IMG/VR virus record: IMGVR_UViG_3300006162_000032
Reading direction: 5' to 3' (one strand)
Length of the DNA stretch: 36,278 nt
Source of the DNA: a virus
The notes under the pieces were generated by a model. The model searched no databases. It was not told the DNA's origin and saw only the letters and a list, made by a program, of their open reading frames with translations. The translations under genes and the position numbers were made by a program. How positions within the stretch are numbered: the stretch's first letter is position 1; every line of letters starts with the position of its first letter. This document shows, one piece after another, positions 1-29,976 of this stretch.

Positions 1-364
1 GCATGAATCAGTATTACTAAGCAATCAGATTCTCAGTGTCAAGGTCAATGGTGAGAAATCTCGCTGAACTTGTCACGAGGGCACTATATCTCGCTGTTCC
101 GGGGTGTTGTCCAGTAAAAAATAACATTTGAAATTGCGGATAAGACTCGGGACCTAGGCTAGACTCGACTCTATATCCCGAATCTCGTAGTCACCTCCCG
201 AATTACGTATCCTACCCAGTAACGCCTGAAATTCGCTGTAAATCTCTCAAAACGCGGGACTTAATCCCCGGGTGCCCGAAAACCTCACTTTCCTAACACT
301 TGACTTCCGGTATATAATACCCACTTTTGGCAGTGACATGTTTGCATAAAGAAAAAAAAGACGA

Positions 365-400
365 TTCACCTATATACTACTGCAAAAAAGTGGTATTATA
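365..400 (+). promoter_or_regulatory. candidate extended -10 promoter (TGgTATTAT at 391-399) for the 438-2720 operon
   Basis: TG-n-TATTAT at 391-399; weak -35; AGGAGG RBS at 421-426 before ATG 438. Confidence 0.3.
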
Positions 401-437
401 GGGCCGGTTTCGGATCGGCTAGGAGGCCGGCCCCAAA

Positions 438-1205
438 ATGTTTCAGACAAACTGGTCGAATTCGTGGGCACACCTCGGACACTCCCCGGACGAGGACCCG
501 ACGAGGCCAATGCGTTACAAACTCAGTGTCACAGGTGCAGAGGGCTATGAAGACAAGGCCCGAGTCCCGAAGCTCGACCCAGATGAGATTATCACCGACC
601 CCCTGGGCAATAAGTTCCGGCGCTCCCAGGTCACTCCCAAACATCTTCTTGCCCTGAATCTCGTGATATGGGTGGTGACCGAAGAAGAAATTAACAACCG
701 GCCCAGGATCATGCGAGGACTGCCGGTGATGGGTCCGTATCTGCCCGGCGAGTTATACGACGCCGACGATCGTCCTCACTACCATGCTTACCTGGACACG
801 TTGCTCTGCGATCGAAAGTCAAACTGGGGCAGTCGATTCCAGTCGATGGGAACGGCCGAATATGAAGATTCTACCTTTGACCCGACGATCTATAAGAAAG
901 GCGACTTTGGTACGTTTGTACCACCCGGTGTGTTATTTCCGTTGCCACCCGGATCGTCGGTACAACGCGCCCAGGTCGGATTCTTCACCATGGCCGGCCG
1001 CCGTAAGTTGTCAGTCCGTTGTGGTCGATGGGACGCGGGTCATTTACTGATCGAACGGAATAAAGAATGGTCCAGCCTGGAAATCGAGACCAAGACCCGA
1101 CGGAAGATCGAGGCTGGGCAACGCGTCAAGGATTACCTGGAACAAATGGCCGAATTACGTGAAATGATCCGGAAAGAAAAGGAGTTGATAAAATCACTAC
1201 GATGA
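438..1205 (+). CDS. hypothetical protein (255 aa)
   Basis: ORF with AGGAGG RBS; first gene of a chain coupled by ATGA/TAATG overlaps. Confidence 0.55.
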   Translation: MFQTNWSNSWAHLGHSPDEDPTRPMRYKLSVTGAEGYEDKARVPKLDPDEIITDPLGNKFRRSQVTPKHLLALNLVIWVVTEEEINNRPRIMRGLPVMGPYLPGELYDADDRPHYHAYLDTLLCDRKSNWGSRFQSMGTAEYEDSTFDPTIYKKGDFGTFVPPGVLFPLPPGSSVQRAQVGFFTMAGRRKLSVRCGRWDAGHLLIERNKEWSSLEIETKTRRKIEAGQRVKDYLEQMAELREMIRKEKELIKSLR

Positions 1206-1402
1206 ACCAGGATATTACTCGACCAATGATCAATGCTTGTATTCGAGAAACTCGCCGTCATATCAAAAGATTGAAGATGAGAAAAAACCGGGGATTGCCA
1301 AATAGGCTGAAAATACTGGAAGAACTGGCCGAGAAAGAAAAGCAATATCTGGAAGAACTGGCCGAGTTTGACAAGTTATTGGCAAAGGGGAAAACTGCAT
1401 GA
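1202..1402 (+). CDS. hypothetical small charged/coiled-coil protein (66 aa)
   Basis: ATGA overlap with upstream stop. Confidence 0.45.
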   Translation: MNQDITRPMINACIRETRRHIKRLKMRKNRGLPNRLKILEELAEKEKQYLEELAEFDKLLAKGKTA

Positions 1403-1626
1403 AAAATTCCGACGTTCCACGCTTTATCCAGAACTTTCGGGTCAAACAGGGTGGCGGGGTGCTCCCCGGCCCCGGTGTCCCGGAGCAAATCGACTTTGCC
1501 CAGTTACAGGGTAAGGCAAAGTTGTCCAGTGGCGCGTATATGAATAATGCCTTTGCCCGTGCCATTCTCAAGGCACTCCATTTCGTCGAGGGTGACGACG
1601 GCGTGTTTCACAAGGCGGTGGAGTAA
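1399..1626 (+). CDS. hypothetical protein (75 aa)
   Basis: ATGA overlap with upstream gene. Confidence 0.45.
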   Translation: MKNSDVPRFIQNFRVKQGGGVLPGPGVPEQIDFAQLQGKAKLSSGAYMNNAFARAILKALHFVEGDDGVFHKAVE

Positions 1627-1739
1627 TGCTTCATAAAGACTGGTTACTTACCGTCGATGGCCAAAGAACGCTTGCCTGGTTATTGATGCTTCAATTCTGG
1701 CAACGAGGTTACCAGAAATATTGGGGGTGGGAACGATGA
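1626..1739 (+). CDS. hypothetical 37-aa protein
   Basis: TAATG overlap upstream and ATGA overlap downstream (translational coupling); below ORF-track length cutoff. Confidence 0.3.
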   Translation: MLHKDWLLTVDGQRTLAWLLMLQFWQRGYQKYWGWER

Positions 1740-2238
1740 GCATCGTGGCATGCCGGAGGGTGGATGGCAGATTTGAAATCGCCGCCGATAGTATATTTGT
1801 ACGGGGATGGACCCAGGGAAAAGACCCATCCGTCAAGTTGTGGTGGATAGGTCAGATGATCGCCGGTTCTTGCGGCGCTATGTCATTAGGTGGTTGTTCC
1901 GCGAGTATATCGAGAATCATCAACCAAAGACTAACAACGAATGGGGTTGGATAAACTTCATGTCGGAGTTCACCAAGTATGTTGTTGGCCTGGATAACCG
2001 GATCAATTACCATGATAACGATTTCATCGTGGTGTGGCAGGGTCGCGCATTTGAAATCGACGGAACACTCACCGTCCACGAGATTACTGATTTCGCGGCC
2101 ATCGGGGCGGGTTCCGACTTCGCACTCGCCGCCCTTCACCTGGGCAAGACGGCCACCGAGGCCTGCGAAGTTGCGTGTAAATTGTCTGTTATGTGCGAGT
2201 TACCGGTGGTCACCATGTTTGATAAGGAAGGCCAATAA
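1736..2238 (+). CDS. HslV/ClpQ-like N-terminal-nucleophile (proteasome-type) peptidase, interrupted by a -1 frameshift near 1885-1905
   Basis: Frame-2 part (MSIVACRRVDGRFEIAAD...VKLWWIGQMIAGSCGAMS) aligns to the HslV N-terminus (TTIVSVRRNGHVVIAGDGQ...[24 protein letters not shown]); frame-1 part (FREYIENHQ...FAAIGAGSDFALAALHL) aligns to HslV FERKLEMHQG...IAIGSGGPYAQAAARAL; ATG 1736 overlaps the upstream stop. Confidence 0.5.
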
Positions 2239-2520
2239 TGGAATATCCCAATAAGATTTATGTTTGGTTTGACCCCGTTTCAAGTCAGTTTGAATTTGCC
2301 GCCCAAGATCAATGGGCGCAATTGGCGAAGGTCGGGCAACCGCGCCGGGGCAACCGCGCCGGGGCAACCGCGCCGGGGCAACCGCGCCGGGGCAACCGCG
2401 CCGGGGCCACGGGAGGTCGACCTCTCGGCCAACGCCACGATGATATTTGGGGAGGATGATTGGGATGATTTGCACCGCGCGGTGGAAGAGGCGCGGATGA
2501 TGTTGGAGAAGAAATCATGA
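2238..2520 (+). CDS. hypothetical protein interrupted by a frame-switching 14-bp tandem repeat (N-terminus in frame 0 from ATG 2238, C-terminus in frame 1 ending 2520)
   Basis: Good RBS (AAGGAAGG) only at ATG 2238; the frame-1 ORF (2260..) has no RBS but ends in an ATGA overlap with the next gene; five 14-bp units (70 bp) separate the two frames. Confidence 0.4.
2337..2406 (+). repeat. perfect tandem repeat (CAACCGCGCCGGGG) x5, unit 14 bp
   Basis: directly visible; unit length not a multiple of 3. Confidence 0.9.
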
Positions 2521-2720
2521 AAGACTTATTCTGGAAATTGCGAAGTTGGTTCCTGGGCCTTTGCGTGATCTGTGGCACGGAACTCGTCTTCGGCGATAAT
2601 ATCTATGAAGACATGGAAGAACATTGGTATTGCCCCAATAAGCAATGTCCAGACTCGGAACTATACGAAGGCCCAGTGGGGTCTAAAGACTCCGGGCCTT
2701 TCGACCCTACCTCAGTGTAG
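2517..2720 (+). CDS. small Zn-ribbon protein (CxxC ... CPNKQC)
   Basis: ATGA overlap with upstream gene; two Cys pairs. Confidence 0.5.
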   Translation: MKDLFWKLRSWFLGLCVICGTELVFGDNIYEDMEEHWYCPNKQCPDSELYEGPVGSKDSGPFDPTSV

Positions 2721-2782
2721 AACCGCCCGATCCGATCCTACCGAAATCCGTAGACTGTCTTCCCATTTTTAGTATCTCAGTG

Positions 2783-2798
2783 TGTCTAAATTTAGACA
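2783..2798. promoter_or_regulatory. 16-bp perfect palindrome TGTCTAAATTTAGACA (operator-like) immediately upstream of promoter
   Basis: perfect inverted repeat, AT-rich surroundings. Confidence 0.45.
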
Positions 2799-2825
2799 GT
2801 TGAAAAATGAGTGAAAAAATATTTT

Positions 2826-2854
2826 TTTTCATCAAGGCATAACTAGGTTATAAT
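2826..2854 (+). promoter_or_regulatory. candidate sigma70-type promoter (-35 TTTTCA, 17-bp spacer, -10 TATAAT at 2849-2854) with A/T-rich upstream tract
   Basis: consensus -10, spacer 17, UP-like A/T run at 2800-2830. Confidence 0.45.
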
Positions 2855-2860
2855 GGATAT

Positions 2861-4080
2861 GTCCAATCTAACGGATTATGGTTAAGGCACCAGGGAAGAC
2901 CAATAGGAGCCCTACCTGGTGACCTTGTGGATCATTGAAATCTAGATTCGGTAGTTCGGAACTGAGTCCGAGTACCCAGCAAAGCGCCTGTCACGGGACG
3001 GTCTGGGAAAAGGGAATAGGGAAAAACTGAGTACCTTCTCAGAATGAACGGCCGATTAAACCTCTACTTGACGGACACCCGTGAGATTCGAGAGAATCTA
3101 AACCCTGGGACCGAGGAAACTCCCGTCATCAGAGATCGTAAGAGAAATCCAGAAGCACGAAGGGCGATTACTGTAATATCTGCCAATCTTCAGAAAAATC
3201 CGAGATTAGAGACACTCGGGCCAACCTCAGACCCTACCGGGGACGGAGAGTCCATTGAAAACTCGTAAGAGTTTGGAACGGTTCCAACGGCGGGCGGGAG
3301 GTAAGAATATGTTGACATCCCAGTTGGCTTTAGAAGATTTAAGGCGTGGGCCAAACCCCACAGTGGAGTTCACAGGTCGTACCTCACGGTCTTCGGGAAG
3401 TCCCGGATGGCGCGATTAGTATTCTGACCGCCGGATAGGACGTACCGATTTTATCTGGTCACGCCGGAATAAGCGAAATGCGATAAAGCCAGGCGTGAAG
3501 TCCACTACGACCGAATCAGGTCCCAAGTCCTGAGCATGTAGGTTATAAAGAGTAGTGGCAAAATCTAGGTTCAAACTCCCGGCAATCGGGAGAATCTATT
3601 GACACAGAGGGCCTTGCGAGTAGGAGTCGCGAGAATCAGGTGTTTCGATAAACCTGGTTCTTAAAGTGGTGATCCCAGTTAGACTGGTTGCTAAACCCCA
3701 CGAAAAGCGAACCGAAAGACGGACGGTTGTCAACGATCTACGACCCAAGTAAGAATGTCAGAGTGCCCATCGCGGACGGTACATTCCCAAACAGTTGAGC
3801 GGCGTTATGCGCCCCGGATCAACTAGAAAGATGAAACCTTTTGGAACAGAATGCCTAAATAACTCCGGTGCACAATTTATATCGGAGTTGGGATGGTTTC
3901 CAAGATTACTGAGACAATTGTATAGTCCATAGATTACCAAGGGACTCTCCTCCCGATGGTAATCGCTGTGTATGACCGTAAGGTCATGCAGAGGGGCGAC
4001 TGTTAGTAGGGACTCTCCTCCTGAATACAGTCGTTAATGCGCCGTGGGGCGGAAAATCCAATCTGAGAATAAAACCTCTC
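2861..4080 (+). ncRNA. candidate large structured non-coding RNA (or very long structured leader); no credible ORF across 1.2 kb
   Basis: no ORF >75 aa and no SD-ATG pairs. Dense local hairpins, many with GNRA loops: AAACTC-GTAA-GAGTTT 3259-3274, ATGACC-GTAA-GGTCAT about 3971-3986, CTCCCG-GCAAT-CGGGAG about 3586-3602, CACCAGG...CCTGGTG 2889-2924. Duplicated GGGACTCTCCTCC (3943, 4009) complementary to GGAGAGTCC at 3247. Confidence 0.3.
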
Positions 4081-4149
4081 AGATTGCCATACCAAGCCAC
4101 GCCAGTCCCAAGCCTGGATAAGAGCACCGGGAACAAGGAGAGGAACACA

Positions 4150-4422
4150 ATGAAAAAACTGGTTAAGGTTAGTCTCGAAGAAATCACGATGAACTTCCTG
4201 AAAGACCCGAACTCCTGGCCACGTTGGCCTTTTCTGCCCCTGGTCCGGCGTAATGGACAGAAGCCTGATTATGCCGTCCTGGCGGAGTCAAAAGAATTTC
4301 CCTTCACTCTTTTCATAGTCAATGTGTTTGACACGGAGGCCCTGAAAAATCTAAGGGACGCGGAACAGTTGGCCTATCGCAGTTTCGAGGACATCGTGAA
4401 AGATGGTTGGGTTGTTGATTAA
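4150..4422 (+). CDS. hypothetical protein (90 aa)
   Basis: AAGGAGAGGAACACA-ATG; stop abuts family-A element. Confidence 0.5.
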   Translation: MKKLVKVSLEEITMNFLKDPNSWPRWPFLPLVRRNGQKPDYAVLAESKEFPFTLFIVNVFDTEALKNLRDAEQLAYRSFEDIVKDGWVVD

Positions 4423-4452
4423 CGAGGGCCACCTCATCTGAGGTGGTAAGTC
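4422..4452 (+). repeat. family-A intergenic stem-loop element (ACGAGGGCC + hairpin + GGTAAGT)
   Basis: conserved flanks; palindromic stem acctcatctgaggtgg; starts at last base of the stop. Confidence 0.8.
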
Positions 4453-4542
4453 CGAGATTACATCGGGCGGGGATGTATGAGTTATCCTGGTCTTTCCCAT
4501 TCGCCGTCAGGGCCAACGTTGCCTAAGTGGGCCGAGATGGTC

Positions 4543-4572
4543 AAAAGGTGAGTACTAGTTAATCACCTTTTC
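4543..4572 (+). terminator. rho-independent terminator-like hairpin (AAAAGGTGA...TCACCTTTT)
   Basis: 9-bp stem with T-run on the 3' arm. Confidence 0.45.
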
Positions 4573-4682
4573 AACCACCCGGTTCGGAACATCAGCCAAC
4601 TAACCGCGCCCAGGCCAACTGGACCCCGGAACTAACCATCCCTCCCCGCGCGGCGTGATTTCGGATTTCAAGGAGAGGAACA

Positions 4683-5090
4683 ATGAAAAAGAATGAGGTA
4701 GAAGTTGGTAAGACGTACGTCGTCAAAGTCAGTAACAAACTGGTTCCCGTCCGATTGGATTCCGTTTCCTCCTACGGAGGTTGGAATGGAACCAATCTTC
4801 GGACCAACCGCGGCGTTCGGATTCGGTCGGCGATGAAGCTGAGGAAAGAGTACGTTCCCAAACCCAAGACACCCCCGGTTGAGGCCACCGTGCCAAGTTA
4901 CGGCGGCTTTAAAGAGGGTGATCGAGTCGAACTGTCCGCGGATGAATATAATCCACGGCAGGTCGGCAAGATCGTCGAGGCGGAACGTGGGGGAATGTTC
5001 ATCGTAGAACTTGATAAAGAGTTCTGGGATGCGGATGACCATGACGGTATCCGTGAGGTTTACTTCACGGATATGAAAAAGATTGCCTGA
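4683..5090 (+). CDS. hypothetical protein (135 aa)
   Basis: AAGGAGAGGAACA-ATG. Confidence 0.6.
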   Translation: MKKNEVEVGKTYVVKVSNKLVPVRLDSVSSYGGWNGTNLRTNRGVRIRSAMKLRKEYVPKPKTPPVEATVPSYGGFKEGDRVELSADEYNPRQVGKIVEAERGGMFIVELDKEFWDADDHDGIREVYFTDMKKIA

Positions 5091-5121
5091 ACGAGGGCCG
5101 CGGATCACTCCGCGGTAAGTA
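5091..5121 (+). repeat. family-A stem-loop element
   Basis: TGA-ACGAGGGCC-gcggatcactccgcgg-TAAGT. Confidence 0.8.
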
Positions 5122-5183
5122 CAGTTAAGGGAGGAAATCCCAACAAGAGATTACATCTCTTGTTGCTGTACCAGGAGAGGAAT
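5118..5183 (+). promoter_or_regulatory. family-B-like structured leader (variant: TACAG/CTGTA P1, GGGAGGAAATCCC, AACAAGAGA...TCTCTTGTT) ending in CCAGGAGAGGAAT-ATG
   Basis: shares the 3' block GCTGTACCAGGAGAGGAA with copy at 15637-15706. Confidence 0.55.
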
Positions 5184-5447
5184 ATGGCAAGAACTTTGCA
5201 AAAAGAACAACGCACCGTCTATGTCACGACCGTACGAGTAGAGGCCCAGACGTTCGAAAAGACCAACAAAGGAACCTGGGAGTACGTCGGGCCGGGCAGT
5301 ACCGATTATGAACGGGAATACACGGCCGTGGCCAGTGAGAGTCATCACGTCGCCGAAAACATCGCCGACAAACTGGTCGACGCATTTCCTGAACTTCACC
5401 AAAAAGACCAGGACACTACTAACTGGTTCAATAACGATATTGGTTGA
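5184..5447 (+). CDS. hypothetical protein (87 aa)
   Basis: start after conserved leader; ORF-track N-terminal extension LLYQERN is the translated leader. Confidence 0.55.
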   Translation: MARTLQKEQRTVYVTTVRVEAQTFEKTNKGTWEYVGPGSTDYEREYTAVASESHHVAENIADKLVDAFPELHQKDQDTTNWFNNDIG

Positions 5448-5475
5448 CGAGGGCCACCCCACGGGGTGGTAAGTA
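5447..5475 (+). repeat. family-A stem-loop element
   Basis: ACGAGGGCC-accccacggggtgg-TAAGT. Confidence 0.8.
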
Positions 5476-5488
5476 TGGAGAGAAAACA

Positions 5489-5779
5489 ATGAAAAAGAAC
5501 CACGAACAAAGCAAAGAATTCACCAAGTTGTTGCTCGATCTGAAAGAACAGGGTTGGTCTATTTATATGAGACCGATTTTGCGAATCGTCGATGATACCT
5601 GGATACTCCGGCGGCGGTCTGATCCGTTGGAATTCCTGTTCGTCGCCGAAGACTTTCAGGTGTGGGAACGGAAGCGGTTCACCCGTGAACCGTTTGGTGA
5701 CTATACCGTGCCCTACCGCGATTTGGGTGGGGGCAAAGACCTGAAATCACTTTACCAGAACCTTACGAGGGCCGCCTGA
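5489..5779 (+). CDS. hypothetical protein (96 aa); last codons (..TRAA-stop) lie inside a family-A element
   Basis: GGAGAGAAAACA-ATG; stop TGA in hairpin loop. Confidence 0.55.
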   Translation: MKKNHEQSKEFTKLLLDLKEQGWSIYMRPILRIVDDTWILRRRSDPLEFLFVAEDFQVWERKRFTREPFGDYTVPYRDLGGGKDLKSLYQNLTRAA

Positions 5780-5793
5780 GAAGGCGGTAAGTA
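5765..5793 (+). repeat. family-A stem-loop element (stop codon of upstream gene in its loop)
   Basis: ACGAGGGCC-gcc-TGA-gaaggc-GGTAAGT. Confidence 0.75.
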
Positions 5794-5886
5794 CCGGGTC
5801 TCACCCAAGACGACAAGATCATGGTTGAGTAGTCCATGACGAGACTCCGAGCGCGTGCGGCCCGGTACTTCAAAAAGAGAGGAACA

Positions 5887-6090
5887 ATGATATATCACAT
5901 AGGACAGGAAAAAGGTGGGCGAATTAAATTCACAACGGATGTTGATTGCCTGTCTCCGCAGATCGTGAAATATACCAAAAAGAACTTCCAAAATCGGGGA
6001 GAGGTTCTATTGTTGGCCGAGGAACTGTGGAAACAGGGTCATGAAACCTGCGTTGATGATGAGGTTGGTTTGGTGGAGTTGGAACACTAA
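5887..6090 (+). CDS. hypothetical protein (67 aa)
   Basis: AAAAGAGAGGAACA-ATG; upstream 90-nt leader forms 10-bp helix AAGTACCGGG/CCCGGTACTT. Confidence 0.45.
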   Translation: MIYHIGQEKGGRIKFTTDVDCLSPQIVKYTKKNFQNRGEVLLLAEELWKQGHETCVDDEVGLVELEH

Positions 6091-6118
6091 CGAGGGCCGC
6101 CCGGTCGGGCGGTAAGTG
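6090..6118 (+). repeat. family-A stem-loop element
   Basis: TAA-CGAGGGCC-gcccggtcgggc-GGTAAGT. Confidence 0.8.
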
Positions 6119-6237
6119 ACGGGTCGGTTCGATTCCACTCGCCCGCGCCTAGTAAGGGTGTGTGTTTGTTGAGTCCCCTTCGAACGGCCAGTTGCAAGGA
6201 TGACGTCGATCCGTCACTTACCAAGGAGAGGAACAAA

Positions 6238-6549
6238 ATGACTTACAAAAGAAAAAAGTTGATTGTACTTCCGGAACGTCTCTTTCGTCAAAAGATCGAG
6301 GCGCAATTGGCAAAGGTTATCAATGCGGTCGAAGTCGCCCATGGTGAGGCGATGAGTCTCAGTATCATTGCCGAGGACCAGACCACGGCCCTGGACAATG
6401 ATCCCGAGGCACTGTCCCCGAAAAACAAACGGGCTTATAACCTGGCCGAGGATGTTTTGGAATGGGCGCAGGCCGTCGAGGAACTGTTGGATGGGGTGGA
6501 TACCGGGGCAATCCGGGCCAAGCTCAAAAAAGCAACGAGGGCCGCCTGA
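6238..6549 (+). CDS. hypothetical protein (103 aa); C-terminus ..ATRAA encoded by a truncated family-A copy
   Basis: AAGGAGAGGAACAAA-ATG; 12-bp helix GGTAAGTGACGG (6111-6122)/CCGTCACTTACC (6213-6224) abuts the SD. Confidence 0.5.
   Translation: MTYKRKKLIVLPERLFRQKIEAQLAKVINAVEVAHGEAMSLSIIAEDQTTALDNDPEALSPKNKRAYNLAEDVLEWAQAVEELLDGVDTGAIRAKLKKATRAA
6535..6549 (+). repeat. truncated family-A element (ACGAGGGCCGCCTGA) inside coding 3' end
   Basis: identical to the 5' half of the copy at 5765. Confidence 0.6.
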
Positions 6550-6557
6550 TGGCCAAA

Positions 6558-6590
6558 ACGAGGGCCGACTCAAAAATGAGTCGGTAAGTA
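6558..6590 (+). repeat. family-A stem-loop element
   Basis: ACGAGGGCC-gactcaaaaatgagtc-GGTAAGT. Confidence 0.8.
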
Positions 6591-6603
6591 CAAGGAGCGT
6601 AAT

Positions 6604-6846
6604 ATGCCAAAACTTTCGAAGGGTCAGATCGCCAACTTCCGAACATTGTCGAACGCCAATCACAACGACCGACTTTGTTTAATCGACTGCCAGGATAAGT
6701 CCACCGGAAAGTCGGTGGCCGTCGTGGCGGCGTTGAACATAGTCGGGAAAGAAATTGAGATTATTCCGTTGGCAAAGTTGTTCGACGGTAATCCCTATGA
6801 TGAGTTACTGCCGCCCAATCCGGACGGTGGTTATCATCAAGATTGA
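6604..6846 (+). CDS. hypothetical protein (80 aa)
   Basis: AAGGAGCGTAAT-ATG. Confidence 0.55.
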   Translation: MPKLSKGQIANFRTLSNANHNDRLCLIDCQDKSTGKSVAVVAALNIVGKEIEIIPLAKLFDGNPYDELLPPNPDGGYHQD

Positions 6847-6876
6847 ACGAGGGCGGTCACCCCGGTGACCGTAAGT
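6847..6876 (+). repeat. family-A stem-loop element
   Basis: ACGAGGGC-ggtcaccccggtgacc-GTAAGT. Confidence 0.8.
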
Positions 6877-6891
6877 ACAAAGGAGAACAAA

Positions 6892-7167
6892 ATGTTTGAA
6901 ACAAATGTCGACGACTTTCACAAAGAACAAGAGGCCGCAAAACGGGCCACCGGGGTCAATTATCGAGATGCTTTGGAATTGGCGATCGCGGCCCTGCAAA
7001 GAGCCGGGGAGGCAAAGTCAGAATCGGCGGTGTTAAATCATATCGACTCGGCCTTACTGGAAGTCGGGGTCGGTGTGCATCTGATGCACACCATACCCCG
7101 GCAGTTGTCTCCGTTTCGGACAAAGTCGGTCATGCAGTTGCTTGGAAGAATGGGAGTTGAAAAATAA
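6892..7167 (+). CDS. hypothetical protein (91 aa)
   Basis: AAAGGAGAACAAA-ATG. Confidence 0.55.
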   Translation: MFETNVDDFHKEQEAAKRATGVNYRDALELAIAALQRAGEAKSESAVLNHIDSALLEVGVGVHLMHTIPRQLSPFRTKSVMQLLGRMGVEK

Positions 7168-7197
7168 ACGAGGGCCGGGTTGAAAACCCGGTAAGTA
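7168..7197 (+). repeat. family-A stem-loop element
   Basis: ACGAGGGCC-gggttgaaaaccc-GGTAAGT. Confidence 0.8.
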
Positions 7198-7209
7198 CAG
7201 GAGAAAAAC

Positions 7210-7446
7210 ATGGAAAATGAATTTTCTGTTTGCCAATTTTTTCCGGATGGCGCCTATGAATATGTGAGACGATTTGTGGGGCCGGAAGAGGCGGTGAAGG
7301 CGTTCCAACACTATACCCATTCGGTGGGCGCCCGCCTGGGCACCACCGTGCGGGTCATTATCACCGACGGCGGCGATATGACAAACATGGAATGGAAGTT
7401 TGGGAAGGGTATCACCTTCCCCGCGGGGCAACACTTTAAACAGTAG
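7210..7446 (+). CDS. hypothetical protein (78 aa)
   Basis: CAGGAGAAAAAC-ATG. Confidence 0.55.
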   Translation: MENEFSVCQFFPDGAYEYVRRFVGPEEAVKAFQHYTHSVGARLGTTVRVIITDGGDMTNMEWKFGKGITFPAGQHFKQ

Positions 7447-7447
7447 T

Positions 7448-7477
7448 ACGAGGGCGGTCACTTCGGTGGCCGTAAGT
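7448..7477 (+). repeat. family-A stem-loop element
   Basis: ACGAGGGC-ggtcacttcggtggcc-GTAAGT. Confidence 0.8.
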
Positions 7478-7492
7478 GCAAAGGAGATAACG

Positions 7493-7774
7493 ATGACTGA
7501 AAAAGATCACCCCGACGATATCTTAAAAGAATTGGGGTTTGTACAAACATATCCCAGAAAATCCGAGGGTGATACCAGATATTTTCGTGGCGAGGCAAGT
7601 GACCGCACCGCGATGATTATATGGTATTCCCAGGACGAGGGCACCGCCGGAATTCGTTACATCGACAACGGTAAAAGGGCAGGTCGACATATTTGGATCG
7701 GGTCATACTCAATTCTGGCCGATATGTTGGTCAAACTTAAAACAAATGGATTTTTTACGAGGGCCATTCCGTGA
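7493..7774 (+). CDS. hypothetical protein (93 aa); C-terminus FTRAIP-stop encoded inside family-A element
   Basis: AAAGGAGATAACG-ATG. Confidence 0.55.
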   Translation: MTEKDHPDDILKELGFVQTYPRKSEGDTRYFRGEASDRTAMIIWYSQDEGTAGIRYIDNGKRAGRHIWIGSYSILADMLVKLKTNGFFTRAIP

Positions 7775-7786
7775 GGAGTGGTAAGT
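7757..7786 (+). repeat. family-A stem-loop element (stop TGA in GNRA-like loop GTGA)
   Basis: ACGAGGGCC-attcc-GTGA-ggagtg-GTAAGT. Confidence 0.75.
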
Positions 7787-7810
7787 CCAAATATGGACTA
7801 AGGAGAACCA

Positions 7811-8020
7811 ATGAAACTTTCACTTCGAGAAGCATTGGCAAAGATGTACACCCCCGAAGTCGCAGAAAATCTCGAGAAAATTGACCTGGAAGAATATCGC
7901 CGGGGTGGCCGAGAAGGTCTCAAGAGTTTTCTTGAAATTAATGACACTTCTCTTTCCACCACAGAAATTGATCTTCTTCTCGATCTAACCGCCGAACAAG
8001 TGGAGAATGCCCATGCGTAA
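7811..8020 (+). CDS. hypothetical acidic protein (69 aa)
   Basis: AAGGAGAACCA-ATG; leader hairpin GTCCAAATATGGAC. Confidence 0.55.
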   Translation: MKLSLREALAKMYTPEVAENLEKIDLEEYRRGGREGLKSFLEINDTSLSTTEIDLLLDLTAEQVENAHA

Positions 8021-8138
8021 ACAAATTTGGCGGACGTTCCGTAAACATATCTGGACGGCGTTGTTTATCGCGGCAATGGCCGGTGTATTCATCATCCTGG
8101 AGGCCGCGTTGACGATTCCGTCGGGGCCGGGGCAGTAA
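8013..8138 (+). CDS. hypothetical 41-aa membrane peptide
   Basis: ATG overlaps upstream stop by 8 nt; hydrophobic core; below ORF-track cutoff. Confidence 0.35.
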   Translation: MRKQIWRTFRKHIWTALFIAAMAGVFIILEAALTIPSGPGQ

Positions 8139-8141
8139 GCA

Positions 8142-8170
8142 ATGAGGGCCGCCCACCTTGGGCGGTAAGT
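8142..8170 (+). repeat. family-A stem-loop element (variant ATGAGGGCC)
   Basis: ATGAGGGCC-gcccaccttgggc-GGTAAGT. Confidence 0.7.
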
Positions 8171-8197
8171 CCAAATATGGACTAAAAGGAGAACAAT

Positions 8198-8530
8198 ATG
8201 TCGGTATTGACTGACGAGACAGTAAACATTTTGGATCAATTAACTGACCGGGATGAGGCCTTCATCGGGGCCATCTCGGCAACGCAGGCCATGTCTGAAA
8301 CTCTCGTTTGGTCACACCGTATGAACTACAACCAGGAAGATATGGAAGGGGTTCTTGACGAGGCGGTCGACAACTGGACTGGGTGGACCGAGGATGAGTA
8401 CCGGGATTTTATCAAGACGTATGATGAGACGCTCAAAAAGGCCGCCTATGATGGTTTGAGACAAACCTTGGAAGATTGCCTTCGGGCTTTTCACCTAAAT
8501 AAAAACTCTTCCGTGGGTTTAACACGGTAG
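8198..8530 (+). CDS. hypothetical protein (110 aa)
   Basis: AAAAGGAGAACAAT-ATG; same leader hairpin GTCCAAATATGGAC as gene 7811. Confidence 0.55.
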   Translation: MSVLTDETVNILDQLTDRDEAFIGAISATQAMSETLVWSHRMNYNQEDMEGVLDEAVDNWTGWTEDEYRDFIKTYDETLKKAAYDGLRQTLEDCLRAFHLNKNSSVGLTR

Positions 8531-8531
8531 C

Positions 8532-8562
8532 ACAGAGGGTCGGACGATAAGTCCGGTAATGG
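8532..8562 (+). repeat. family-A stem-loop element (ACAGAGGG variant, 3' flank GGTAATGG fused to family-B leader)
   Basis: ACAGAGGGT-cggacgataagtccg-GTAATGG. Confidence 0.7.
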
Positions 8563-8626
8563 CAATGAGGGAAAACCTCAGAACTGAACGGTACCCGTTC
8601 AGTTTGCCATACCAGGAGAGGAACAT
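8556..8626 (+). promoter_or_regulatory. family-B structured 5' leader (three-way junction: ATGGCAA/TTGCCAT P1, GAGGG-AAAA-CCTC P2, variable P3) ending in ACCAGGAGAGGAACAT-ATG
   Basis: P1 and P3 complementarity; P3 = GAACTGAACGG/CCGTTCAGTT. Confidence 0.6.
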
Positions 8627-8821
8627 ATGAACATCGTAAGGAATTTGGCGCCACTTTGGCCGCTGCTGTTACTGTTGCTACTTTTTTCGTGGCTTGCGCG
8701 TCCCGCCGAGGCGTCCTCCCGCGGTAGCAGGGGACATCACCGTTCGGCGGTGGCAAGTTGGCCAAAAAGTACTCACGGTCACTCTCACTTCCCGCACAAA
8801 CCGGTAAAAACGAGAGGATAA
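8627..8821 (+). CDS. hypothetical protein with N-terminal signal-peptide-like Leu run (64 aa)
   Basis: start after family-B leader. Confidence 0.45.
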   Translation: MNIVRNLAPLWPLLLLLLLFSWLARPAEASSRGSRGHHRSAVASWPKSTHGHSHFPHKPVKTRG

Positions 8822-8822
8822 C

Positions 8823-9065
8823 ATGTCAATACGATTGATTATCAAAGGCGACAAAGAAACCGCCCTGGTCGAGGCCTCCCTCGCAGATATCCGGCAGTAT
8901 AACTTTGTAAAGGAAAATCTGCAATCGGACGGTGAGACCAAGTATACCGAGGCACTCGCATCAGACGCCGATCTGGAACGGGTTGCCATCTGGTTCACGA
9001 AACAAAAACACGAGGAGGTTCCCTATCCACCGGGGACACTTCTTTGGTACCAGTTTGTTCCTTAG
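8823..9065 (+). CDS. hypothetical protein (80 aa)
   Basis: GAGGATAAC-ATG, 1-nt gap after upstream stop. Confidence 0.5.
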   Translation: MSIRLIIKGDKETALVEASLADIRQYNFVKENLQSDGETKYTEALASDADLERVAIWFTKQKHEEVPYPPGTLLWYQFVP

Positions 9066-9069
9066 TGAT

Positions 9070-9101
9070 ACGAGGGCATCCCCGGAAACGGGGGTGTAAG
9101 T
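9070..9101 (+). repeat. family-A stem-loop element
   Basis: ACGAGGGC-atccccggaaacgggggtg-TAAGT. Confidence 0.75.
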
Positions 9102-9134
9102 CCGATGAATCGGGCTTATACAGGAGAAGAACAA

Positions 9135-10697
9135 ATGAATCACCAAGAAATGTTGAAGTCGTTCTTGGCAGTTGAAGCGATGAAGTCGTACAACGTCGTT
9201 AGTCCAATAATGTTATCCAATCCGATATCCGTGTTAAAACGTATGACGCGCGATAAAGGTTGGAGTAACCAGGCCATTGTTGAAATGGGCCGTCGGAAAA
9301 TGCTGGGAAAGTTTCTGGGAAGTTACGTCTTGCGTAATGTTTCCGGAGATGAAATATACCAAAAATTTCCGGTGTTGGATTATTTGGGTGAAGTTTCGTT
9401 GTTCTCGAAACCCGCCGACTGTGTTACTTACCGGGGAACGCCCGAGCAAAATCAAGTAATTGATCGCGCCTTGGCCGTCTCTCCGGTAAATACTTCCAAT
9501 AATTTTTTTGGGAGTGGTATCGCCGGACGTTTGTCCACGTTTTATAACGTGATCAATTTGGACATTGGGAACACACCCATTGCCATCATCGGTGGTGGGG
9601 CGGCGGGCCAAATTGTACGATATGGCCTGAGTCGCACCGGATTTAAAAATGTAACTCTTTATGAAAAGGGCAAACCATTTGGAATCTGGTCACGGGAAGA
9701 TATCAAAGGCGGGAGTCGAAACAATCCTCGTAGATTGGTCCTGGGCGAGTATGCCCTGGAACCGGCGCCCGGCGAAGGATCGGAGGTACGGGATTTTCTG
9801 CAAAATATCCAGAACGCCAATTCATTAAACGTTATCACCAACGACGTCACCACGGTTACTCCGAACAATCTTGCCCACGGGGTTTATGACCGTGGTCAAA
9901 GTTTTAAGGAGTACCCCATCGTCATCAACTGCCTGGGACTGGGAAAACCGAAAAACCTCTCGGATCGCCACCGTATGGTGACATCTGCGGAGGTCACCCA
10001 CGCCGGTAACCGTTGGCAAAAGCGCCTCACTTACCCGCAAATTAAGGGAAAGAAATTTCTCTTTATTGGCCTGGGAAACTCTACCGCCGAGATGCTCCGG
10101 CAACTTCACGATGCCCAGGATCGAGGAATTGATACCGATTATTCGGTATTGACCCACTATCCCAAGGACTCCGTATTTAATCCGGATGATTACATCATCC
10201 AAAAAAACACGAAGTACCGGGTATTTCGTGATCTTTCTGCCTCGAACCTGGTAGATTACGAGGGCGATCTTCCCCAGAACCGGGCCGATTACTACCGGGC
10301 ACTGCGGACGGGGCGCATCGTGTCAGATGTCACCGGGTGGGACCGGATCATAAAAGACTTTGTGATCCGGCGGGGTCGTTCCCAGACCGAAACCAAAGTG
10401 GATGAGTTTTATAACCTGACCGGTTATGAGAATCGCCCCGACGATCTGGTGAACTTCGGTTGCAGTTTCCGGCACAATGAAATGCAATACGACTACGACG
10501 GAGAAATTCAAAAGTCTCCCGGACTGGCCGACCCGGAACTCCGGTTGCACAAAGGTTACTTTGGGTTTGGCGCCCTTCTGGGAACCTCCCACAACCCCAA
10601 CGCGATCGTGATTCCGGGTATGTTGCACCGCCTGGGCGACCTGTTGTTCGGGGTCATCGTGCGGTCTATGGAGTACAAAGAAAAACAGAACGACTAA
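9135..10697 (+). CDS. FAD/NAD(P)-binding oxidoreductase with two dinucleotide-binding motifs (flavin monooxygenase-like)
   Basis: IAIIGGGAAGQIV (GxGxxG) and FLFIGLGNSTAEML (second Rossmann, PvdA/IucD-like GxGxSxAE); CAGGAGAAGAACAA-ATG. Confidence 0.7.
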   Translation: MNHQEMLKSFLAVEAMKSYNVVSPIMLSNPISVLKRMTRDKGWSNQAIVEMGRRKMLGKFLGSYVLRNVSGDEIYQKFPVLDYLGEVSLFSKPADCVTYRGTPEQNQVIDRALAVSPVNTSNNFFGSGIAGRLSTFYNVINLDIGNTPIAIIGGGAAGQIVRYGLSRTGFKNVTLYEKGKPFGIWSREDIKGGSRNNPRRLVLGEYALEPAPGEGSEVRDFLQNIQNANSLNVITNDVTTVTPNNLAHGVYDRGQSFKEYPIVINCLGLGKPKNLSDRHRMVTSAEVTHAGNRWQKRLTYPQIKGKKFLFIGLGNSTAEMLRQLHDAQDRGIDTDYSVLTHYPKDSVFNPDDYIIQKNTKYRVFRDLSASNLVDYEGDLPQNRADYYRALRTGRIVSDVTGWDRIIKDFVIRRGRSQTETKVDEFYNLTGYENRPDDLVNFGCSFRHNEMQYDYDGEIQKSPGLADPELRLHKGYFGFGALLGTSHNPNAIVIPGMLHRLGDLLFGVIVRSMEYKEKQND

Positions 10698-10727
10698 CGA
10701 GGGTGGGTCACTTCGGTGACCCGTAAG
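10697..10727 (+). repeat. family-A stem-loop element
   Basis: ACGAGGGT-gggtcacttcggtgaccc-GTAAG. Confidence 0.75.
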
Positions 10728-10761
10728 ACCAATCAAATCTTTAAATAGGAGAGGAATTAAC

Positions 10762-11172
10762 ATGAAATGGATTGAATTGCTGCGGGAGATTGCCAAAGAA
10801 ATCAACAAAAATTCGTCACCGACGGATGTACTAGACCGGGGTGGCGACAATCTCTACAAAATATCACAGGGGAAGGCCCTATGGTGGGTTCTTTCGGCGT
10901 TGCGCGGTCCGGATGAACAGAACTCGCAAAATGGCATCAGCGACCATGATGCCAAATGGGCGACGACCGAGGTAATCCGAGGCCGTCTTGGCCTATGGGA
11001 GAACGGTAATCAGGCCAGTTGTTTATCTAGTACCTCCGATACGGCAGATAAGCTGGAACTCCGCAAACGGATAGTCACCACGGGGGATAACCATTTTGGT
11101 TATCACGCCCGGATGGCCTTTCACGTTTTGGGCCTGAAATGGGATGAGGTCAATAAAATCGAACCCATTTAA
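10762..11172 (+). CDS. hypothetical protein (136 aa)
   Basis: ATAGGAGAGGAATTAAC-ATG. Confidence 0.55.
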   Translation: MKWIELLREIAKEINKNSSPTDVLDRGGDNLYKISQGKALWWVLSALRGPDEQNSQNGISDHDAKWATTEVIRGRLGLWENGNQASCLSSTSDTADKLELRKRIVTTGDNHFGYHARMAFHVLGLKWDEVNKIEPI

Positions 11173-11193
11173 CAAGATGTAGTGTCCCTGATA

Positions 11194-11223
11194 ACGAGGG
11201 CCACGGAGAAATCCGTGGTAAGT
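11194..11223 (+). repeat. family-A stem-loop element
   Basis: ACGAGGGCC-acggagaaatccgtgg-TAAGT. Confidence 0.8.
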
Positions 11224-11241
11224 ACAAGGAGAGAATTTCAA

Positions 11242-11478
11242 ATGAACCGACAAAATGTAGAAAAAACCAAGAAAAGATTGGAAGAACTAGGAGTCATCTC
11301 CCTAAATGAACTGCGCACACGCCTGGCTAAAAAGGGTGTGTCGCCGAATATACCGCTCACCACGGCCATGGTGAAACATGTTGAAAGTTACCCCCGGCCG
11401 GAGGAAGTCGTGGCCATGGGACTGGCGATGATTATGTACGGAATGATCAAGATGGAAAGGCGAGGGAACCCCCTCTGA
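11242..11478 (+). CDS. hypothetical protein (78 aa)
   Basis: CAAGGAGAGAATTTCAA-ATG; stop TGA lies in loop of hairpin AACCCCC-TCTGA-GGGGGTT. Confidence 0.5.
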   Translation: MNRQNVEKTKKRLEELGVISLNELRTRLAKKGVSPNIPLTTAMVKHVESYPRPEEVVAMGLAMIMYGMIKMERRGNPL

Positions 11479-11498
11479 GGGGGTTTAAGGAGGGAAAT

Positions 11499-11741
11499 AT
11501 GACAACACAAGTGGGAATGATCGAGGTAGATTCGACCAATATCCAAAGTATCGGATATGACGTGCTGCGGCGGATTCTGTACGTAAGATTCCTGACCGGC
11601 CGCATGTATCGTTACTTTGGCGTAGGTCCCCTGACCTTCGGCCGCTTTCAACGGGCACATTCCAAGGGTCGTTTTTTCTACCAGTTCGTTCGATATCGTT
11701 ACAAGTATGAATTGGTGGAAAACGGCCGGAGGGTGGCATGA
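11499..11741 (+). CDS. hypothetical protein (80 aa)
   Basis: TAAGGAGGGAAAT-ATG. Confidence 0.55.
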   Translation: MTTQVGMIEVDSTNIQSIGYDVLRRILYVRFLTGRMYRYFGVGPLTFGRFQRAHSKGRFFYQFVRYRYKYELVENGRRVA

Positions 11742-11914
11742 GATGGCGGGTCAAGTACGAAACTGTACTGGAGGCAGAAAACCGCACCCAGGCGGTTCTT
11801 TTGGCGGAGTCTTTAATTCCAGAGAAATATTCTAAAGGGATGAAATACACCGTCGAGTTTATTGATCTTGATGAAGAGATGACAGAGGAAGAATATTCAG
11901 AGGGCGCCGGGTGA
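11738..11914 (+). CDS. hypothetical acidic 58-aa protein
   Basis: ATGA overlap with upstream stop; stop TGA in loop of following hairpin; below ORF-track cutoff. Confidence 0.35.
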   Translation: MRWRVKYETVLEAENRTQAVLLAESLIPEKYSKGMKYTVEFIDLDEEMTEEEYSEGAG

Positions 11915-11925
11915 TCCCCGGCGTT
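11898..11925 (+). repeat. family-A-like stem-loop (CAGAGGGCG-ccgggTGAtccccgg-CG)
   Basis: variant lacking GGTAAGT; stop codon in loop. Confidence 0.5.
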
Positions 11926-11947
11926 ACGACCAAATAAAGGAGAAACA

Positions 11948-12214
11948 ATGACAGTAGATAATATTGATGTATACCCGATCGTCGGATGTGAAAAATATCC
12001 GGAGGTTCGGGAAGCAGGTTATTTGGTATGTGAACATGTCGGTAACCCCGGCGACGTGGAGTTTTTTGAGCCGGCCACCGAAACTTCCATGGGCGTAATC
12101 AGTTGCAAGAGTTGTCCTGAAGAAACCGACCCAAAAAGACAAATATATCACTTCTCGGTCAGTTGTGCGTCCTGCCTACGATCGGCGGGGTTTATTCCGA
12201 TTACTGTTCAATAA
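11948..12214 (+). CDS. Cys-rich (Zn-binding-like) hypothetical protein (88 aa)
   Basis: AAAGGAGAAACA-ATG; CxxxxxxxxxC, CKSC, CASC motifs. Confidence 0.5.
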   Translation: MTVDNIDVYPIVGCEKYPEVREAGYLVCEHVGNPGDVEFFEPATETSMGVISCKSCPEETDPKRQIYHFSVSCASCLRSAGFIPITVQ

Positions 12215-12242
12215 CAGAGGGCCACGGGAAACCGTGGTAACG
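12214..12242 (+). repeat. family-A stem-loop element (ACAGAGGG variant)
   Basis: ACAGAGGGCC-acgggaaaccgtgg-TAACG. Confidence 0.75.
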
Positions 12243-12301
12243 CACTCGTCCCTCCAGGCCGTGCGTTGGAAGCAAATTTGTTCGTGATAGGAGAGATTCA
12301 A

Positions 12302-15968: not shown

Positions 15969-15971
15969 ATG

Positions 15972-27234: not shown

Positions 27235-27441
27235 ATGGATCAACTCAACTCCCGGGGTCATACTCGGGCCTGTACATGTTGCTTCGAGTGTCGTAGTGAA
27301 AACCGCCGGTGGGCGTTAAGCCTTCCGGCGGCCTTGATGTTAAATCCGGCGCTCAAAACCAATCGCTCTATTTTAATCAAGCGAAATCGTCTAATATATG
27401 ACGGTTTGAGAGGAAAAGAAAATGGCAGACGCAAAAAATGA
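27235..27441 (+). CDS. doubtful small ORF (68 aa)
   Basis: weak RBS; overlaps probable promoter/leader of MVP gene. Confidence 0.15.
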   Translation: MDQLNSRGHTRACTCCFECRSENRRWALSLPAALMLNPALKTNRSILIKRNRLIYDGLRGKENGRRKK

Positions 27442-29976
27442 ATTGATTCTGGCGCAGAATCAATATGCGTTCATTCAGGACGAGACCAAGGGAAGTGTGA
27501 AGGTCCACGTGGGGCCGCTTACCGTCACTCCGTCTGGCAATGACCGCCCGGTAGTCTATGATAACGAGACCCGTCGTTTTATTCAGGCAACTTCTTTGAA
27601 AGAGGCCGTACAACAGAACACCACCGTCGATGAGGGTTCTTATGTAATTTTGGAGAACCCCGCCGACAAGGGCAACAATCCGCCGGCCGGCGCCTCTTCA
27701 CTGCCGACTGATTTACAGATTGGCCGTAAGATCAATATTCCTGGTCCGGCGACCTTCGCCCTTTGGCCGGGGCAAAGTGCCCAGGTCCTAGAGGGACATC
27801 AGCTTCGTTCCAATGAATACCTGGTGGCCCGCGTCTACGGCGTCGAAGAGGCCAAGAAAAATTGGCCGACGGTCGGTACTCGCCTTCCCGAGTTGCCAGA
27901 TAATTTGGCCACCGGACAATTGCTTGTGATTCAGGGAACAGACGTCAACTTTTTCATTCCTCCCACGGGAGTAGAGGTACTCCCCGATCCGGTGACCAAG
28001 ACACAGTACATTCGTTCTGCGGTGACCCTGGAACGATTGGAATACGTGATTCTTCTTTCAGAAGATGGCAACAAGCGTTATGAAATCGGACCCAAGGTGG
28101 TCTTCCCACTGGCCACGGAAAAATTTGTTACCAAGTCTGACGACGGACGGGCCGGTATCAAACAGAAGGCCATCGAGTTGACTGACCAGATGGGTATTTA
28201 TGTTAAGGTTATTGCCGACTATGAGGATACCACCAACTTCCTTGGTCCCAATAACACTCCGTTGGGCCGGCGGGAATCAAGTGCCGAGGCGGCACCCGTC
28301 GAGGGTCGGCGACCTCCAAAATCAGAGAACAAGTATTCTTACAAAGTTGGTGATGAATTGTTCATCACCGGCAAGCAACAACGCATCTATTACCCTCGGT
28401 CGGAACACGCCCTGATTGAGTATGATGGCGAAGATGCCCAGGGAAATAAGTTCAAACGGCAGCGGTATTATGCCGTGGCCATTCCCGAGGGTGAGGCCCG
28501 TTATGTTCTGGACAAGATCACGGGTAAGATTGACAAGGTATCGGGACCGCAGGTGTTCCTTCCCGATCCTCGTTATCAGACCATTGTGCGTCGTATTCTG
28601 AGTGACAAGGAAGTTTCTTTATGGTATCCGGGCAACTCTACCGCCGTGGCCTTCAACCAGGCCCTACGGGCAACTTCCCAGGACGCCACGATGGACTTTG
28701 TCCAGGATATGACTCATAATACAATGGACCTGGAACGATCGATGAACCGTATGACCAAAGGTTCTCCGATCATGGCCAGTAACAGTTATTCCGGGGGTAC
28801 CGGAGTGTGTTGGCCGGGGCCGCGGGGGAGACTCTGCGGCGATCCGGAAAATACACCCCGCCTCCGTCGTTGACCCTGAACACGAAATACGACGGGGTAC
28901 CCGTCGTTGAACCCTGGACGGGTTATGCCGTCCAGGTGGTACGCCGCAATGGAAGTCGGCAGGTTATCAAGGGGCCGGCCTCGATTCTTCTGGGATATGA
29001 CGAGACTCTGGAACGGGTGACGTTGTCCACCGGAAAACCCAAGACCACGGACAAGCCGATGGAAACGGTTTATCTGCGGGTAGACCATAACAAGGTTTCC
29101 GATTTTGTTACAGTCGAGACTCGGGATATGGTCAACGTAGAAATCTATGTTTCCTACCGGGTCAATTTTGAGGGCGACGCCAACAAGTGGTTCTCTGTTG
29201 AAAACTACGTGAAGTTCCTGTGTGACCATCTTCGTAGCCTTTTGCGGGCGAAGGTAAAGCACCTGACAATCAAGCAGTTCATTGATTCCTCGTCGGCCAT
29301 CATCCGGGACACAGTGCTGGGCGAGCCGAAGGACGGCAAGCGGGCGGGAAAGGTATTTGACGAGAACGGGATGCGCATCTATGACGTCGAAGTCCTTCGG
29401 GTAATGATCAAAGATGATACCATCTCCGGCCTCATGGTCAAGACCCAACGCGACACCGTACAACAAACTTTGAATCTTTCCGCCAAGGAAAGTGAAAAGT
29501 TGTTGACGGAGAAACTCACCGAACTGGAGATGGCCCTGGCAGATTTGAATAAAGCCTCAAGTCTGCATACGATTGAAGTGGAGAAGACCATCGCCCAGGC
29601 CAACGCCGACTTGTCCATGCAAAAAGAGGAGTCGGTACGCGAACGAAGTATCAGGGCCAAGAAACATGATGTGACGATCGCCGAGATTTCTCATCAGGTG
29701 GCCTCGGAGAATCTGGCCGTCGACGAGGCCCGGGCGGAGCACGAACAAAAGGTACTGGAGGGAGAAACGGCCGAGTATGTAAAACGACTGGCCGCGATTT
29801 CTCCGGAACTGGCAAAGGCCATTGTTCTCATTGGAAACAATGACCTTGCCGAAAAACTGGCCGAGGCGGTCGCGCCCCTGGCCGTGGTGGAACAACAGGG
29901 GATCGGTCCGATTTTGGGCCGTATCTTTCATGGAACACCGGTAGAAAAGATTCTCAACCAGATCGAAGACAAATAA
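27422..29976 (+). CDS. major vault protein (MVP) homolog: MVP repeat domains + SPFH-like shoulder + cap-helix coiled coil; reading frame broken near 28790-28830
   Basis: Part 1 27422..28873: GEARYVLDKITGKIDKVSG vs human MVP NEGIYVQDVKTGKVRAVIG; YKVGDELFITGKQQRIYYP vs VVAGDEWLFEGPGTYIP. Part 2 28807..29976: GVPVVEPWTGYAVQVVRRNGSRQVIKGPASILLGYDETLERVTLS vs [45 protein letters not shown], followed by a coiled coil. G-runs (ccggggg, cgcggggg) at the junction. Confidence 0.65.

Follow-up and report, generated by a model that had tools for sequence, protein, structure and literature searches.

A perfect 14-bp tandem repeat of variable assembled length separates the two coding halves of a small gene in an uncultured phage, with only out-of-frame states observed

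The DNA stretch analysed in this work, hereafter called the window, is a viral sequence of 36,278 nucleotides (IMG/VR record IMGVR_UViG_3300006162_000032). It derives from a phage which is represented by public contigs of up to 71.7 and 99.5 kb, and whose genes lie nearly all on the plus strand. A sigma-70-like factor, a DNA methylase, a T4 Rnl1-like RNA ligase, an SNF2 helicase and ThyX are encoded in the window, together with a protein of the Acb2/Tad1-hairpin family. Specifically, the gene that follows the RNA ligase (25457-25843) carries a precomputed PF24729 (Acb2/Tad1 hairpin) match on the identical ENA contig; the members of this family are sponges for anti-phage-defence signalling molecules. 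A DNA similarity search against deposited phages returned no match. The phage is large (at least 99 kb), uncultured and of freshwater type, and the repeat-containing gene described below belongs to its early or accessory region. In addition, an 86-bp element occurs twice in the phage genome, in inverted orientation and with 95% identity between the copies (window positions 25391-25476 and L001 positions 5363-5447), the second copy lying outside the window, about 2.4 kb upstream of its first nucleotide. Window position 25476 is the exact endpoint of several short public contigs, while others end at 3171.

The repeat-containing gene is preceded on the plus strand by an HslV-family peptidase-like gene (1736..2238), recognised through phrog_1040 and intact homologs, some of which are labelled as Chloroflexi or Anaerolineae MAGs. 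As encoded, this gene is split by a 1-nt deletion near 1884-1890 (GGTGGTTGTTCC), where a single T is missing (GGTGGT-TGTTCC), and the deletion is common to all public contigs. Following a conceptual -1 join of the two ORFs between GGTGGT and TGTTCC, the phrog_1040 score reached 69.6 bits, compared to 55.3 bits for the longer (C-terminal) ORF alone. The joined product gave a full-length HslV-family match, aligning over 95-99% with intact homologs of 162-176 aa, which read ...SLGG-LFREYIENH... across the junction. Programmed frameshifting was considered for this gene and rejected, since no slippery site is present. On these grounds, the HslV-like gene is probably a pseudogene.

On the other side of the locus, a plus-strand gene of 67 aa (2517..2720), identified as an ORF with a zinc-ribbon-like CxxC...CxxxxC motif, is endowed with its own GGAG, 9 nt upstream of ATG 2517. 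Beyond it, the region from 2720 to 4080 (about 1.3 kb) is devoid of any convincing ORF, and no tRNA or Rfam family was detected therein; a strong sigma-70-like promoter match (TTTTCA-17-TATAAT, 10/12) maps at 2826-2854. This stretch may be an uncharacterised non-coding region.

Between these two genes lies a perfect plus-strand tandem array (2334..2407), defined through Tandem Repeats Finder, base composition and a six-frame scan, and consisting of five units of GGGCAACCGCGCCG followed by GGGC. Tandem Repeats Finder reported a period of 14, 5.3 copies, 100% matches, no indels and a score of 148, with GGGCAACCGCGCCG as the consensus and all five units identical. The self-match of the array at lag 14 extends over 60 positions in a row, far above chance. 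The initial annotation, which had described a perfect fivefold 14-bp repeat at 2337-2406, was therefore correct, its register being a rotation of the array given here. The G+C content of the array is 86%, compared to 50% for the window, and none of the six frames contains a stop codon within it. Neither the unit nor any of its rotations occurs outside the array on either strand of the window, and by allowing up to three mismatches only chance-level matches were found in the window, with no dispersed motif. No gain in folding was observed with respect to shuffled sequence, either as DNA (z = -0.07) or as RNA (z = +0.54); Rfam and tRNA scans of the window gave no matches, and a promoter and terminator scan showed nothing at the repeat locus. 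A 6-bp direct repeat, AGGTCG, flanks the array (2329-2334 and 2414-2419), and a deletion between its two copies would be in frame; given their short length, these copies are likely due to chance. A second tandem repeat of the window, 32 bp x2.2 with 97% matches, maps at 15900-15970, between a minus-strand ORF ending at 15708 and a plus-strand ORF starting from 16000, and shows the same copy number in all assemblies compared.

The array interrupts a small gene without homologs. Its N-terminal coding half (2238..2333, plus strand, MEYPNKIYVWFDPVSSQFEFAAQDQWAQLAKV) starts at ATG 2238, which is preceded at a distance of 6 nt by the Shine-Dalgarno sequence AAGGAAGG (2225-2231) and shares bases with the upstream gene's stop codon TAA (TAATG). 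The C-terminal coding half (2407..2520, plus strand, PREVDLSANATMIFGEDDWDDLHRAVEEARMMLEKKS) lies in the +1 frame with respect to ATG 2238, and its TGA (2518-2520) overlaps ATG 2517 of the zinc-ribbon-like gene (ATGA, 2517-2520). With the five units present in the window, the ORF read from ATG 2238 spans 2238..2459 on the plus strand and gives a 73-aa OFF product (protein P0004), the tail of which is out of frame (...GGRPLGQRHDDIWGG) and ends at a stop codon 57 nt ahead of the next gene.

Since the protein has no homologs, the codon usage of the phage itself was chosen as a test of the coding frames. The model was trained on 14 long plus-strand genes of the phage and, in control trials on small genes excluded from training and cut into 35-codon pieces, it pointed to the right frame in 98% of cases. 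For the N-terminal segment (2238-2333), the log-odds was +8.06 in the ATG 2238 frame, and for the C-terminal segment (2407-2519) it was +9.54 in the +1 frame, both segments being negative in their other five frames. By contrast with the two halves, the array scored between -2 and 0 in all six frames, that is, it is without coding signal. The codon-usage signal in both halves, along with the overlaps at both ends, supports the existence of a single ancestral gene, about 70 aa long, which a non-coding-looking stretch interrupts. AlphaFold2 single-sequence models of the fusions with 0 and 3 units were of low confidence (pLDDT about 57), and the repeat-encoded stretch was predicted to be disordered.

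As the unit is 14 bp long, each unit shifts the downstream frame by 2 nt, and hence only counts divisible by 3 fuse the two halves. By rebuilding the locus in silico with 0 to 9 units, we found that the frames fuse at 0, 3, 6 and 9 units only. The reading of the locus proposed in the initial annotation thus holds for the good ribosome-binding site at ATG 2238, for a C-terminus placed in the +1 frame and ending in an ATGA coupling with the next gene, and for the fusion of the frames by 3 or 6 copies, 5 copies being OFF; the fusion with zero units had not been pointed out there. The description of the C-terminus as conserved-looking has to be abandoned, because a protein without homologs cannot be called conserved. 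An in-frame allele would couple the zinc-ribbon-like gene translationally to the upstream gene.

The initial annotation had suggested counting the repeat units in related isolates. In public contigs of the same phage, the assembled array was found with 2, 4 or 5 units, all counts referring to assemblies. Specifically, 5 units are present in the window (36.3 kb) and in a contig of JGI 3300027911 (14.4 kb), 4 units in contigs of JGI 3300021861 and JGI 3300006086 (1.0 kb each), and 2 units in ENA ERZ28007521 (71.7 kb), in ENA ERZ27247826 (1.0 kb) and in a second ENA contig of 99.5 kb, for which the count was deduced from an identical encoded 2-unit product. Two further contigs break at the locus: JGI Ga0075029_100000545 (21.7 kb) ends inside the array after 3 units plus GGGC, and Logan SRR5581441 (7.4 kb) starts with exactly 30 nt of the array. 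The array flanks showed no mismatches in all contigs compared. By aligning window positions 1-12459 and 14308-35455 (about 33.6 kb) to the 71.7-kb ENA contig, no substitution was found, and the two sequences differ at two sites only, the array and one A missing from the window at 28806/28807. The missing A (GGAGTAGTGTTGG in the window, GGAGTGTGTTGG in the ENA contig) is located outside any homopolymer. Through its loss, an 851-aa gene carrying an MVP-shoulder domain (PF11978) is divided into ORFs 27422..28873 and 28807..29976; the difference is either genuine or due to an error in the consensus. The array is by far the most changeable site of the compared phage genome. Because 2, 4 and 5 units occur in contigs with no other substitutions, it is a hot spot of length mutation or, at least, a site unstable in assembly.

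Probably, these counts reflect a real length polymorphism, between or within samples. The initial annotation had itself raised a repeat collapse in assembly; in the form considered here, a single fixed count of at least 5 units would exist, the shorter arrays arising from de Bruijn collapse of the 14-bp cycle. In line with this idea, the count follows the pipeline, being 2, 2 and 2 in the ENA contigs (MEGAHIT, k141) and 4, 4, 5 and 5 in the JGI ones. As calculated from the array length, the shortest valid de Bruijn path contains 2 units when k is 20-33, rising to 4 at k = 48-61 and to 5 at k = 62-75, which coincides with common k values (21/29 and 55/59). The 4-unit alleles, corresponding to the shortest path at k = 48-61, come from contigs of about 1 kb, probably of low coverage, and the Logan contig (k = 31) begins with k-1 = 30 nt of the array, indicating that the tract breaks assembly graphs. 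In addition, the absence of substitutions between ENA and JGI sequences suggests the same or nearly the same read sets, so that the samples are perhaps not independent.

However, the 74-nt array is much shorter than both the final k (141) and the 150-nt reads, and should therefore be resolved at good coverage. The 2-unit allele is found on the 72-kb and 99-kb contigs, which are long and evidently well covered. A comparable cycle arises at the 32-bp x2.2 array (15900-15970), whose repeats are exact up to k = 35, but there the two pipelines give identical results. Moreover, Ga0075029_100000545 ends at 46 nt of the array, a length that equals k-1 for none of the k values usually employed by JGI, although k = 47 would give it. 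For these reasons we consider an assembly artefact an unlikely source of the variation. Even if it were correct, the 5-unit tract and the frame split would stay real. De Bruijn graph assembly is unable to extend a tract past the length present in the reads, and 5 units must accordingly exist in the reads. Of the collapse suspected in the initial annotation, what stands is that the count tracks the pipeline, which leaves it some probability, above all for the 4-unit alleles on contigs of about 1 kb; the 2-unit arrays on long contigs and the identical control array speak against it.

Sequence searches for relatives of the split gene, and for an allele in which its halves are fused, led back to this locus. 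The repeat-free fusion protein could be assigned to no family in PHROGs or Pfam. In the protein collection searched, comprising 15 billion proteins reached via representatives, the repeat-free fusion returned four proteins only, all from the same locus in different frames, and their lengths imply differing unit counts. These four 'proteins' (P0001-P0004; 59, 64, 72 and 73 aa, in three frames) are the output of public gene callers and are set by the unit count at one locus. No homolog beyond this locus emerged from the word-indexed and the exhaustive HMMER searches, and a further candidate, P0005, was rejected as a spurious repetitive match. An in-frame product, most of whose sequence would also be present in the query used in both searches, was found neither among the 5.8 billion cluster representatives of the word-indexed search nor among the 1.84 billion representatives of the HMMER search. 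In the same way, no in-frame allele (0, 3 or 6 units) is present among the seven complete alleles. In six related loci, neither a homolog of the repeat gene nor synteny was seen in the slot that follows the HslV-like gene. In IMG/VR, neither the left flank nor a pair of repeat units gave a match, and scans for relatives of both neighbouring genes found none. As homologs are lacking, no function can be proposed for the split gene.

As regards the origin of the array, a search with two exact units gave one match in 185,579 species-representative genomes, namely the uncultured Dehalococcoidia chromosome OY282565.1. This chromosome carries tandem arrays with the identical consensus unit GGGCAACCGCGCCG, x7.6 (89% matches) and x3.6 (88% matches). 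The OY282565.1 arrays are degenerate (88-89%), intergenic and mixed with GGGGCAACCacaaGGGTTGCCCC hairpins, whereas the phage array is perfect and devoid of hairpins; elements of the GGGGCAACCacaaGGGTTGCCCC type are absent from the phage. The cluster (L021, 5870-6337) is organised in higher-order repeats of 78-90 bp with GGGGCAACC...GGTTGCCCC hairpins, and it is bordered by a xanthine/uracil-type permease gene on one side and a metallo-beta-lactamase-fold gene on the other. It may represent a REP-like repeat family, which would possibly be a clue to the host. Along with the Chloroflexi or Anaerolineae labels of some HslV-like homologs, these similarities are compatible with the capture of host-type (Chloroflexota) repeat DNA by the phage, but they may be a coincidence, any link of OY282565.1 to the phage or to its host being putative.

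The structure of the locus itself hints at a foreign origin of the array. The repeat-free sequence is in frame and the composition of the array looks foreign, which may lend indirect support to a putative disruption of the gene by insertion, no intact homologs having been found. The array looks inserted: without any unit the two halves are joined, whereas a single unit keeps them apart. An origin in place, by duplication of one unit already there, would therefore need an ancestor that was itself out of frame.

All together, the reading that accounts best for these data, and to which we would give about an even chance, is that a slippage-prone 14-bp minisatellite, probably of foreign origin, has frameshifted a dispensable phage gene and that its length is now drifting, only OFF states being seen. 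According to this model, units would be gained or lost via slipped-strand mispairing or unequal recombination between perfect units, so that the array would behave as a mechanical on/off toggle of the reading frame. With 5, 2 or 4 units, translation would stop early, at 2459 or 2443. At such out-of-frame counts, ribosomes initiating at the strong start would not produce the C-terminal half, and coupling to the next gene through ATGA would be lost. The unstable repeat would have arrived recently, knocking out an accessory gene beside another broken gene; the adjacent pseudogene speaks for gene decay in this region rather than for a switch that is maintained.

A true contingency (phase-variable) locus, acting as a bet-hedging switch that is ON at 3 or 6 units and also tunes the zinc-ribbon coupling, appears improbable to us. 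The structural needs of such a switch are all present, that is, a perfect tract, with a unit that is not a multiple of 3, inside an ORF preceded by a strong ribosome-binding site; the genome, otherwise invariant, varies mainly in the length of this tract, and coding signal and coupling overlaps are preserved in both halves. Furthermore, the break of Ga0075029_100000545 falls at the very position at which the longer alleles would part from an in-frame one of 3 units. On the other hand, the ON allele is absent from the seven complete alleles and from both protein-representative searches, a protein without homologs offers no function or selective rationale, the neighbouring HslV-like gene is a probable pseudogene, and the composition of the array resembles a foreign insertion rather than an evolved coding linker. 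The missing ON allele is not statistically decisive, because few independent alleles (three distinct lengths) are available. Likewise, the clean coding signal and the intact overlaps fit a gene used in ON phases as well as a very recent knock-out. Weighing a maintained contingency switch against a recent knock-out with drift, we regard the switch as less likely. The slipped-strand phase variation put forward in the initial annotation is thus upheld as far as the coding halves, the 14-bp unit and the 2/4/5 counts are concerned, but it lacks the in-frame (ON) allele.

Very unlikely is the view that the locus is not one gene, but two small genes, a gene with an untranslated leader, a DNA- or RNA-level repeat or a case of programmed frameshifting: the array lacks coding signal and is open in three forward frames, each with an upstream ATG (2238, 2260 and 2312), but the C-terminal half has no start and ribosome-binding site of its own (ATG 2440 is 24 nt from the nearest GGAGG), ATG 2260 and ATG 2312 have no Shine-Dalgarno sequence, the array folds like its shuffles without Rfam matches, its motif is absent elsewhere in the window, and a variable unit count speaks against a precisely spaced binding array. 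Programmed frameshifting at the repeat gene was rejected, in that no slippery site for a +1 shift is found and the fold equals that of the shuffles.

Frameshift switching driven by repeats is well known in bacterial pathogens, and contingency loci with repeats inside ORFs include the tetranucleotide tracts of Haemophilus, the CTCTT repeats of Neisseria opa and the polyG tracts of Campylobacter. The phage locus resembles them in having a perfect tract, with a unit length not divisible by 3, within an ORF and downstream of a good start, and in that a polymorphism of tract length moves the frame between identical flanks. It differs from them in its 14-bp unit, its occurrence in a phage gene instead of a bacterial surface or restriction-modification gene, the presence of OFF lengths only and the insertion-like, foreign appearance of the tract. 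Classical contingency-locus units measure 1-8 bp, and a 14-bp unit, if the switch were true, would be far longer. Three structural features of contingency loci are found here (the tract in an ORF, the unit length and, at the assembly level, the length variation), while the joint presence of ON and OFF lengths is not, the sole hint of it being the contig break at 3.3 units.

In phages, to our knowledge, switching by repeats has been documented mainly for the polyG tracts of Campylobacter phages. The hypermutable nature of these tracts was described by Sorensen et al. (2021, Cell Rep 35:109214), as cited in PMC10877375, and such known switching of phage genes lends some plausibility to a phase-variable locus in the present phage. 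The two cases are alike in that a phage-borne hypermutable repeat shifts the frame of a gene and creates sub-populations. In the Campylobacter phages, the tracts are homopolymeric, they affect receptor-binding or structural genes, and ON/OFF phenotypes have been demonstrated, whereas here a 14-bp minisatellite lies in an early- or accessory-region gene without homologs and no ON state is seen; no homopolymeric G tract in a receptor-binding or structural gene is involved.

A further comparison is offered by variable-number tandem repeats, in which, as at the present locus, units longer than 9 bp change in count faster than point mutations arise and short-read assemblies hide the change. In M. 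tuberculosis, the number of tandem-repeat copies undergoes phase variation, and longer tandem repeats phase-vary at 1e-2 to 1e-3 per chromosome (PMC12817950), a behaviour that would also favour a contingency locus. Those repeats are located in promoters and tune transcription (PMC12817950), while the phage tract lies in an ORF and would act by frameshift.

The most far-reaching version of the switch, which we hold to be quite improbable, would be that of an environmental lytic phage maintaining a minisatellite-driven phase-variable gene, so that sub-populations with a small accessory protein, possibly directed against host defence, switched ON (3 or 6 units) or OFF would coexist. The repeat would perhaps have been captured from host-type (Chloroflexota) repeat DNA, and coupling to the downstream gene would be modulated.

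In conclusion, our data depict a locus which is a clean, checkable case of a short repeat dominating the polymorphism of an otherwise invariant phage genome. They also carry a warning, as short-read assemblies of one phage disagree at such tracts, leading to four 'proteins' for one gene, and such tracts inflate the counts of proteins without homologs. If ON and OFF lengths did coexist, the locus would provide a rare example, in an uncultured phage, of a switch of the minisatellite type, and it would mean that phage accessory genes can be bet-hedged by minisatellite switching.
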